Shown piece by piece: positions 36,318-37,348 of a stretch of DNA of 64,000 nt. This stretch comes from a phage, in sequence record PX930852.1, one strand, 5' to 3'. Positions within the stretch are counted from its first letter, which is position 1; the number at the start of each line of letters is the position of its first letter. Both the position numbers and the translations under genes were made by a program. The notes beneath the pieces were generated by a model. The model was not told the origin of the DNA. It searched no databases and worked only from the letters and a program-made list of their open reading frames with translations.

Positions 36318-36905
36318 ATGAAACTGTTAAATATCAAAATCACTGGTACTCGTCCTTTCTTGAGCCATAACGATACGTTGTCAGACCCATTAAACCCTCT
36401 GACGAAATATCACAAGTCTCTGTCCAGTAAACGTAAAAAGACTGACGAAGACTATGCGCTCTTAGCAGAAAGCCAACTGGTAACTTCTTGTTACTACGAT
36501 GAGCAGCTAGGTTTTGTTATGAACGGTGAGATGATTGAGGCTTGTATCAAGTCTGGTGCAAAACTCAACAAACTTGGTAAGGTAATTGACCGAGCCATTA
36601 TGCTGACAGATGTAGTCTTCCCAATGACTATCAAGAACTGTCCAGCAAACCCACAAGAACTCGCTAAGAATCCAGACTTTATCTATGCTAAGTCTGTTAA
36701 GATTGGTACAGCACGAGTTATGAGCTACCGTCCAATCTTCCGTGACTGGTCTGTAGAGTTTGGTTTGATGTTCGATGAAGAGCAAATCACCCGAGAGGAA
36801 CTTCTGATGGTTCTGGAAAATGCTGGCAACCTTTGTGGTGTAGGTGATTGGCGTCCACGCTTTGGTCGTTTTTCTGTAGAAGTTATTTCAGAAGGTAACG
36901 TTTAA
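36318..36905 (+). CDS. Hypothetical protein (first gene of repeat-flanked cassette)
   Basis: Start set at ATG 36318 after GGAG; no recognisable motif. Confidence 0.4.
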
Positions 36906-36907
36906 TT

Positions 36908-37348
36908 ATGAATACAAAAGCATTAGCAGCAAAGTTTAGTTACGGTGACACTGTATCACATTCTGAGATGGACACCTTCTTAGGTATTGTGAAGCCAACT
37001 TATCAAGGTGACATTGTTAAGTACGAAGATGAAATGAAGGCTTATGCACTTACACGTCTAAACCGACTTGAGAAGTTTATTGAAAAGCTTCTTAAAGAAG
37101 AGAAGATTTATCTGGTTGCTTCAATGGGTGTTGGTTATCGTGTGGTTGAACCTAAGCATCAAGCAACTATTGCAAAACGTAAAATGTCTGGTAAGATTGG
37201 TCGTGCTTTAAAGCAAGCCACTCAAGCGATTGAGAATGTGAATACTATGGCACTTAGTCATCAAGAACGTTCACGACTGATTGAACAGCAAAACCATTTA
37301 GCTGCTATGAAAGCTAACATTAACAAGCAACGTAGAAAACCTTTCTAA
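36908..37348 (+). CDS. Hypothetical protein (second gene of repeat-flanked cassette)
   Basis: 146-aa ORF with helical basic C-terminus. Confidence 0.4.
   Translation: MNTKALAAKFSYGDTVSHSEMDTFLGIVKPTYQGDIVKYEDEMKAYALTRLNRLEKFIEKLLKEEKIYLVASMGVGYRVVEPKHQATIAKRKMSGKIGRALKQATQAIENVNTMALSHQERSRLIEQQNHLAAMKANINKQRRKPF

Follow-up and report, generated by a model that had tools for sequence, protein, structure and literature searches.

The phage sequence record PX930852.1, analysed here as a window of 64,000 nucleotides, belongs to a Felixounavirus genome in which two tandem open reading frames (ORFs) on the plus strand, at 36318–36905 (195 aa) and 36908–37348 (146 aa), are enclosed by arrays of related repeats. 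An earlier note on this DNA had listed the two ORFs with exactly these ends and lengths and had described homologous repeat arrays on both sides; our analysis agrees on both points, the arrays comprising four 125-nt copies and a fifth, degenerate unit. Two bioRxiv preprints of April 2026 (10.64898/2026.04.26.720920, 10.64898/2026.04.26.720927) describe a system named VIPR (Viral Interference Programmable Repeat), in which a gene for Vipr, a small RAMP-fold protein, and an accessory gene, vap, are flanked by genes for vrRNAs, each vrRNA having 9–16 YNNGG repeats and a structured tail. We read positions 35909–37784 as a complete type II VIPR cassette of the kind found in phage SUSP1, with guides directed mostly against an E. 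coli satellite, and give this reading a probability of about 0.92. The cassette is ordered promoter, two vrRNA genes, vipr, vap1 and three further vrRNA genes.

Sequence identity over the region is 99.6% with Felixounavirus LF82P9 and LF82P1, and 92–96% with numerous Felix O1-like phages, bumzen and wV8 among them. The wV8 counterparts of the two genes are gp95 and gp94, both labelled 'hypothetical protein', and parts of the repeats are labelled 'DR_4' there. The second ORF starts 2 nt past the stop of the first, which has a GGAG box 8 nt 5' of its ATG; an alternative GTG start at 36303 would yield a protein of 200 aa. Both ORFs are real genes; they are found at 95–99% DNA identity in 118 phage records and their products have 519 and 234 protein homologues, respectively.

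The first ORF was assigned as vipr, encoding a RAMP-fold protein predicted to polymerise on vrRNA, from its match to a solved structure and its identity to the SUSP1 gene. A sequence search of the PDB matched the 195-aa protein over its full length to chain 36pp_D, 'SUSP1 Vipr protein' (E = 1.5e-127), and the two proteins are 97.4% identical, with 5 of 195 residues differing (N18A, P119Q, R159K, V189I and I190M, from this phage to SUSP1). The protein is a small single-RRM RAMP with the G-loop and thumb, homologous to SUSP1 Vipr, and its nearest structural neighbours are Cmr4, Csm3 and Cas7, at 10–12% sequence identity. Thirteen of the 14 published Vipr contact residues, which read the GGY bases or hold the DNA strand, are conserved at the same positions (H17, D177, R138, W178, E71, M72, R179, C173, K33, K82, K88, G87 and R39). 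The fourteenth, given as 'T175' of the pyrimidine pocket (10.64898/2026.04.26.720927), is V both in this phage and in the genomic copy of SUSP1, and the mismatch is one of preprint text or numbering rather than of this locus. Homologues of Vipr numbered 519 in a word-indexed search. The earlier note had found no recognisable motif in either protein, which remains correct for Pfam, NCBIfam and PADLOC (zero matches for the 195-aa or the 146-aa protein) but has been overtaken by the solved-structure match and the RAMP fold. PHROGs holds the two proteins only in unnamed families (phrog_4652 and phrog_5926), in annotation pipelines the two genes are still 'hypothetical protein', and no model for either exists in Pfam, NCBIfam, PADLOC or Rfam.

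The second ORF (36908–37348, plus strand) is vap1, the gene for the Vipr accessory protein: 145 of its 146 residues (99.3%) are those of the product of the SUSP1 gene that follows vipr. Its predicted structure (pLDDT, a model confidence score, of 96) shows a winged-helix-like topology with a helical hairpin. Vap1 is a putative small DNA-binding protein, described from predicted structures in the preprint as winged-helix-like or helix-turn-helix-like. A full HMMER scan retrieved 234 Vap1 homologues (145–200 aa, 21–37% identity) and a word-indexed search only its own cluster; by such sequence comparison Vap1 evolves faster than Vipr. The pairing of the two genes extends to distant loci. On a Xanthomonadaceae contig and on a metagenomic phage contig, a Vipr homologue (41–49% identity) is followed by an overlapping ORF of 156–166 aa with homology to Vap1 (E = 2e-14 and 4e-4), the former match being at 28% identity, and three GGC/NN arrays lie 3' of the gene pair on the Xanthomonadaceae contig.

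We then analysed the repeats. Tandem Repeats Finder and a second repeat finder delimited a 125-nt unit in four copies (36119–36243, 37378–37502, 37527–37651 and 37654–37778), and also reported a G-rich motif of pentamer periodicity in many copies; at about 36012–36117 there is a fifth unit, which is more degenerate. Each unit is built from a leader with an inverted repeat, 11–13 Y-NN-GG pentamers and a tail of about 38 nt with two interleaved stems. In all five arrays, two of them 5' and three 3' of vipr–vap1, GGY is constant and NN variable, as in vrRNA genes. The five, here W1–W5, are all on the plus strand, and their ends are approximate. W1 (36012–36117, tail from 36080) has 13 pentamers, five with a degenerate GG, and a pseudoknot tail, its NN pairs reading AA GT TC GC GA AT GG AG AT AT GC AA (AT). 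The others have 11 pentamers each. W2 (36150–36244, tail from 36208) reads CT GT AG TG AT AC CC GT GT AC (AT) and carries a pseudoknot tail of the GGGTGGATGG type; W3 (37409–37504, tail from 37467) reads AC GC TA AA CT AG AG GA TT AA GC, with compensatory changes in its pseudoknot tail; W4 (37558–37653, tail from 37616) reads GT AA GC TA AT GC CA CA GA TC (GC) and also ends in a pseudoknot tail; and W5 (37685–37779, tail from 37743) reads AT AT GT TT TA AT TG GT AA AG (AT), with a pseudoknot tail of the GGAAGGATGG type. A strict GGY-periodicity scan of the window recovered four of these arrays and missed W1, where 5 of 13 GG positions are altered, as some are in several SUSP1 vrRNAs; no GGY array beyond the five was present in the 64 kb. 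The last pentamer before the tail is nearly always TatGG or TgcGG across phages and is therefore probably not read as guide.

The tails were aligned as nine distinct sequences from this phage, SUSP1, bumzen and one copy of the satellite described below. Their two interleaved helices form a pseudoknot in which 88.9% of cells pair, compared with 28–39% when the partners are slid, and 9 of the 11 pairs show compensatory changes on both sides, a covariation score that none of 500 shuffles matched. A search of the repeat islands against Rfam gave no match. We had also considered the pentamer arrays as sites for a TRAP-like ring protein, a candidate dropped upon the PDB match to Vipr.

The cassette as a whole (35909–37784, plus strand) is bounded at both edges by an imperfect 17-nt direct repeat (family D17), present as TATAAAAGTTGTTGACA at 35909 and as TATAAAATCTGTTGACA at 37785, with a promoter-like -35 box in each copy. 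A putative sigma-70-like promoter, TTGACA-16-TATACT (11/12), is found 5' of the first vrRNA at 35920–35947 (plus strand); it is conserved in SUSP1, P219 and Felix O1 and is the probable promoter of the vrRNA–vipr–vap1 unit. A terminator-like GC hairpin with a T run (37360–37384, hairpin 37360–37375, plus strand) follows directly 3' of vap1 and abuts the W3 leader. The earlier note had placed the two ORFs on a promoter–terminator unit of their own. The hairpin after the second ORF bears out the terminator end of that proposal, but directly 5' of the first ORF there is only a weak, 9/12 promoter-like site (36273–36302); the strong promoter precedes the first repeat island, the unit it heads includes two guide-RNA genes, and three more lie past the terminator. 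Across the region, the number of promoter-consensus sites did not exceed the shuffled expectation.

In order to identify the targets of the guides, we chose satellite probes on the basis of the preprint's remark that the targeted satellite has tail genes in common with SUSP1. E. coli genomes contained no match to the phage gene assigned by PHROGs as 'baseplate hub' (49329–50306). With the gene that immediately follows the tape measure (50647–51450, minus strand; 267 aa, phrog_3721), matches were found in 474 of 5426 complete E. coli genomes, always on the chromosome; across its first two-thirds this gene shares up to 93% DNA identity with the E. coli counterpart, which is annotated as a 'phage baseplate protein' gene. 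The counterpart belongs to an element of about 11 kb that also has a serine recombinase gene, a tape-measure gene of its own, an HNH gene and small ORFs, and that is inserted at two or more chromosomal sites, either between yciI and tonB or in a DUF72 gene near yecN and yecD (for example, at about 5800–17350 of locus L005 and about 2400–14300 of locus L007). The element is presumably a satellite of Felix O1-like phages, and it probably parasitises this phage; E. coli strain 20 (CP064847) and CEC13004 (AP026118) are among the strains that bear it.

Each guide was scanned against both strands of nine satellite loci with skips of 0–3 bases between dinucleotides, and 200 order-permuted versions of each guide served as controls. 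Four guides found strong matches. The best site of W1 (23/26) falls in the tape-measure coding sequence (L007 10756–10793; AAAGTATCCGCTGAAATGGGAAGGATGATTGATAA), and that of W4 (20/22) in the recombinase coding sequence (L005 16861–16892; GTCAAAGCCTACATAGCGCATCAGGAATC). W3 scored 21/22 in an intergenic leader, some 50 nt 5' of the gene that precedes the tape measure (L007 8533–8564; ACAGCCTACGAACTTAGAAGAGACTTAAAAGC), a site that would lie in the leader 5' of the satellite late genes. The best W5 site (20/22; L006 7615–7646; ATGCTAGTATTGTATATATAAGTTAACAGAAT) overlaps the -10 box of a promoter-like site before the satellite main operon, which in L007 reads TTGACA-17-TAGGAT. High scores were obtained with the 1-nt skip only, skips of 0, 2 or 3 giving 14–18, and none of the 200 permuted guides reached the observed score of W1, W3, W4 or W5. 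When the last unit was dropped, the scores were 20/20 for W4, 23/24 for W1, 19/20 for W3 and 18/20 for W5. Across the satellite loci the NN match was 88–96% for W1, 95% for W3, 91–100% for W4 and 90–91% for W5, with 80% taken as the minimum. At both coding-sequence sites, those of W1 and W4, the guide reads in frame and skips the wobble base of each codon, an arrangement that the preprint also describes for targets of SUSP1.

W2 was not counted as having a target: its best match, 17/22 (77%) in frame 1 of the satellite tape-measure gene, was reached by 20 of 200 permuted guides, and no exact match to it was found in IMG/VR, in metagenome contigs or, with the last NN dropped, in species-representative genomes. 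No guide rose above background within the window itself, nor against the host genes flanking the satellite in the nine chromosomal loci scanned. Some satellite copies carry a vrRNA of their own without vipr (L010 4689–4763 and L013 4127–4201, both on the minus strand), with a GGY/NN array and a covarying pseudoknot tail; their guides match other satellite copies best (20/22 and 21/24), not the phage window. The 2026 bioRxiv VIPR preprint makes the same observation.

The mechanism proposed for the locus comes from the preprints' work on the nearly identical SUSP1 system, where vrRNA expression was seen by small RNA sequencing, vrRNAs co-purified with Vipr, the complex was studied by cryo-electron microscopy, binding with a 1-nt skip was observed in vitro, GFP was repressed, lambda plaquing fell 10^5-fold and vap1 enhanced the effect (10.64898/2026.04.26.720920, 10.64898/2026.04.26.720927). 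By analogy, vrRNAs of about 100 nt, consisting of YNNGG pentamers capped by a 3' pseudoknot, would be expressed in this phage. One Vipr protomer would bind each pentamer, hiding the GGY bases and presenting the NN pair, and the resulting helical filament would bind double-stranded DNA whose sequence fits the NN pairs if one base is passed over after each (NNxNNx...), forming an R-loop triplex and blocking transcription without cutting; Vap1 would strengthen the silencing. With four of the five guides apparently directed at the satellite of about 11 kb, which carries tape-measure and baseplate genes related to the phage's own, the likely role of the cassette is to silence the parasite of the phage during infection.

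The earlier note had interpreted the two genes differently, as moron-like cargo encoding anti-defence or host-takeover proteins and bounded by the repeats, which on this reading would be mere boundaries or recombination sites. In its favour, the cassette is accessory, has direct repeats at its edges and is absent from relatives, neither protein is found in Pfam, NCBIfam or PADLOC, and W2, with no known target, could in principle aim at a host gene. However, the first protein is a Vipr RAMP whose close homologue has been solved bound to exactly such repeat RNA, the repeats show constant GGY, variable NN and a covarying pseudoknot, and four guides match the satellite and not host defence genes. 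An anti-defence or host-takeover function is thus not supported for Vipr and Vap1, and the repeats are not boundaries but guide-RNA genes of the same system, without which the two genes cannot work. We regard this interpretation as already largely refuted and as very improbable in what remains of it.

Even less probable, in our view, is that the locus represents a degenerate or miniature CRISPR-Cas remnant, type III- or IV-like, with contiguous pairing between crRNA and target. The structural neighbours Cmr4, Csm3 and Cas7 and the glycine-rich C-terminal loop typical of RAMPs point in that direction, but identity to Cas proteins is only 10–12%, no protein matched a Cas family in PADLOC or NCBIfam, and the neighbourhood ORFs and annotation contain neither repeat-spacer units nor other cas genes. 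The only repeats are the pentamer arrays, the neighbouring genes encode a ligase, small hypothetical proteins, a dihydrofolate reductase (DHFR) and a thymidylate synthase, and contiguous (0-skip) pairing stays at background while 1-nt-skip pairing rises above it. A replication or partition module, with the arrays as iterons or an origin bound as DNA by both proteins, can practically be dismissed: short periodic G-rich repeats do lie beside polymerase, ligase, DHFR and thymidylate synthase genes and the GC skew changes sign at about 30 kb and 41 kb, but the skew follows a switch in gene orientation, each repeat, unlike an iteron, has internal variable positions, a covarying RNA pseudoknot closes the arrays, the SUSP1 arrays are transcribed and co-purify with Vipr as RNA, with RNA-bound structures, and about 100 relatives retain a single array without either protein, others having nothing, so that the module is dispensable for replication.

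The VIPR cassette described here resembles the SUSP1 type II system (PDB 36pp) in its site, between the ligase gene and a downstream 127-aa gene, in its gene order, leader types, three tail types and promoter, and in the satellite family it appears to target. It differs in having two upstream vrRNAs rather than one, and five in total rather than four, with all five guides distinct from the four of SUSP1; SUSP1 is a Suspvirus, whereas this phage is a Felixounavirus. The locus is thus a near-identical copy of the type example of an already known system, and it adds a member and not a concept. What the present analysis contributes is confirmation of the 1-nt-skip rule, independently and by sequence alone, from guides parsed out of this phage, and a map of the satellite targets, which lie at the promoter, in a leader and in the genes for the tape measure and the recombinase. 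Specific to this phage and its relatives are the guide set, the extra upstream vrRNA compared with SUSP1, three states of the site and the lead on orphan guides described below. The wider interest lies in VIPR itself, in which a 20-kDa protein and a repeat RNA read DNA by a gapped code, and which has been proposed as an ancestor of CRISPR RAMP proteins.

Relative to Class 1 CRISPR RAMPs (Cmr4, Csm3 and Cas7), which act in a multi-subunit complex, VIPR relies on a single small protein and has no CRISPR array, Cas6, adaptation genes or nuclease, silencing its targets instead of cleaving them. In its guide, GGY separates the dinucleotides that are read, and 3 DNA bases correspond to 5 RNA bases, whereas the guide of Class 1 CRISPR has five paired bases and one flipped. 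The other type II system in the preprint, from a clade of Pseudomonas fulva prophages, likewise combines vipr, vap1 and a vrRNA array and targets competing mobile elements; some of its guides hit other VIPR systems, which is paralleled by the orphan guides of Felix O1-like phages against vipr. That clade, however, consists of temperate prophages whose guides are aimed mainly at the lysis–lysogeny regulators of resident prophages, in contrast to the predominantly satellite-directed guides of this Felix O1-like phage. The Felix O1-like phages are a virulent group. In the Vibrio phage ICP1, a CRISPR-Cas system is reportedly directed against PLE satellites and is said to be a complete type I-F system with nuclease and spacer acquisition. 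Both cases would place an RNA-guided system on a lytic phage with guides aimed at a chromosomal satellite that parasitises it, but VIPR uses one protein, does not cut, reads a non-contiguous code and has no known acquisition machinery.

We also compared the site among related phages. The vipr–vap1 segment occurs in 118 phage records, whereas the adjacent ligase gene occurs in 260, at 80–100% DNA identity. In mistaenkt, the ligase gene is followed by 84 bp and then by the homologue of the downstream gene, the 1.9-kb cassette being absent as a block. The Salmonella phage P219, Felix O1 and about 100 further records lack vipr and vap1 but retain the promoter, a single leader, a single vrRNA and the last tail, a state that looks like the product of recombination between the first and last vrRNA units. 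As a rough census of the phage collection, the full cassette is carried by 118 records, a single orphan vrRNA by about 100, and neither of them by some others. Judged from these comparisons the cassette is accessory, as the earlier note had proposed, and neither protein proved homologous to core replication or structural proteins.

The guides themselves are not equally stable. This phage, wV8 and bumzen share identical W1 and W2, whereas their downstream arrays (three, two and three in number, respectively) are completely different, with no guide in common; when SUSP1 is included, the downstream NN pairs again differ while the GGY frame is kept. Guide turnover, as far as these arrays indicate, is therefore concentrated 3' of vap1.

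Orphan vrRNAs were decoded from five phages without vipr (Felix O1, P219, JN01, NJ12 and OPT-SAL01), including those between the ligase gene and the next gene in Felix O1 (L018; AF320576 57295–58255), P219 (L017 4102–4383) and JN01 (L020). The Felix O1 orphan guide, AT AC AA GA GA CT CT AT GT CT, matches codons 157–166 of vipr (ITKEELLMVL) by the 1-nt-skip rule in frame 0. The match is complete in bumzen (20/20) and scores 19/20 in both wV8 and SUSP1; in this window, at 36786–36814 on the plus strand, it scores 18/20. Other skip rules gave 14–16, and 1 of 300 permuted guides reached 18 in the window. The P219 guide matches the same vipr site in frame 0 (17–18/20), and the short guide of JN01 matches another vipr site in SUSP1 (15/16). 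The NJ12 guide scored 18/22 against vipr in frame 1, a value reached by 22 of 300 permuted guides and not counted as evidence, and the OPT-SAL01 guide had no match in vipr. The orphan-guide matches look selected, because a guide interleaved with GGY cannot come to resemble its target through common descent.

These matches raise the tentative possibility of a second layer of conflict with vipr as the target, in which an orphan guide would act as a guide-only weapon, borrowing the Vipr of a rival phage to shut off that rival's vipr–vap1 during mixed infection. We think it somewhat more doubtful than not and treat the orphan-guide finding as a lead, not a result. In the portion of the preprint text available, guides directed at other VIPR systems are described for the Pseudomonas clade alone, and neither orphan vrRNAs nor Felix O1 are mentioned. 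Both mismatches between the window and the Felix O1 guide are within codon 159, a CGA (Arg) in this phage where the other phages have AAA (Lys), and the Arg159 codon may be an escape change. Two of the five differences between this Vipr and that of SUSP1, N18 (36369–36371) and R159 (36792–36794), lie within orphan-guide sites, the former in that of JN01 and the latter in that of Felix O1 and P219; this could reflect escape, although the coincidence, at about 0.07 in a rough hand estimate, is no more than marginally unexpected.

Two further observations concern the surroundings of the cassette and its leaders. Between the ligase stop and the VIPR promoter, an unannotated ORF of 48 aa (35767–35913, plus strand) encodes a strongly hydrophobic peptide (MFSTVILFILVVFVLSYVASKLLDTSFAMGVLFTIFCFVTHIAIRTFL); the segment is without counterpart in P219 and mistaenkt, and SUSP1 has unrelated sequence in its place. 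The motif (A/G)AGAGTCTT recurs at 35982–35994, 36247–36259, 37506–37518 and 38028–38040, that is, in vrRNA leaders, just 5' of vipr and within the next gene, and the satellite site matched by W3 (L007 8533–8564) is within a hairpin bearing the similar TTAAG..TCTTCTAAG. The motif could be a processing or regulatory signal.

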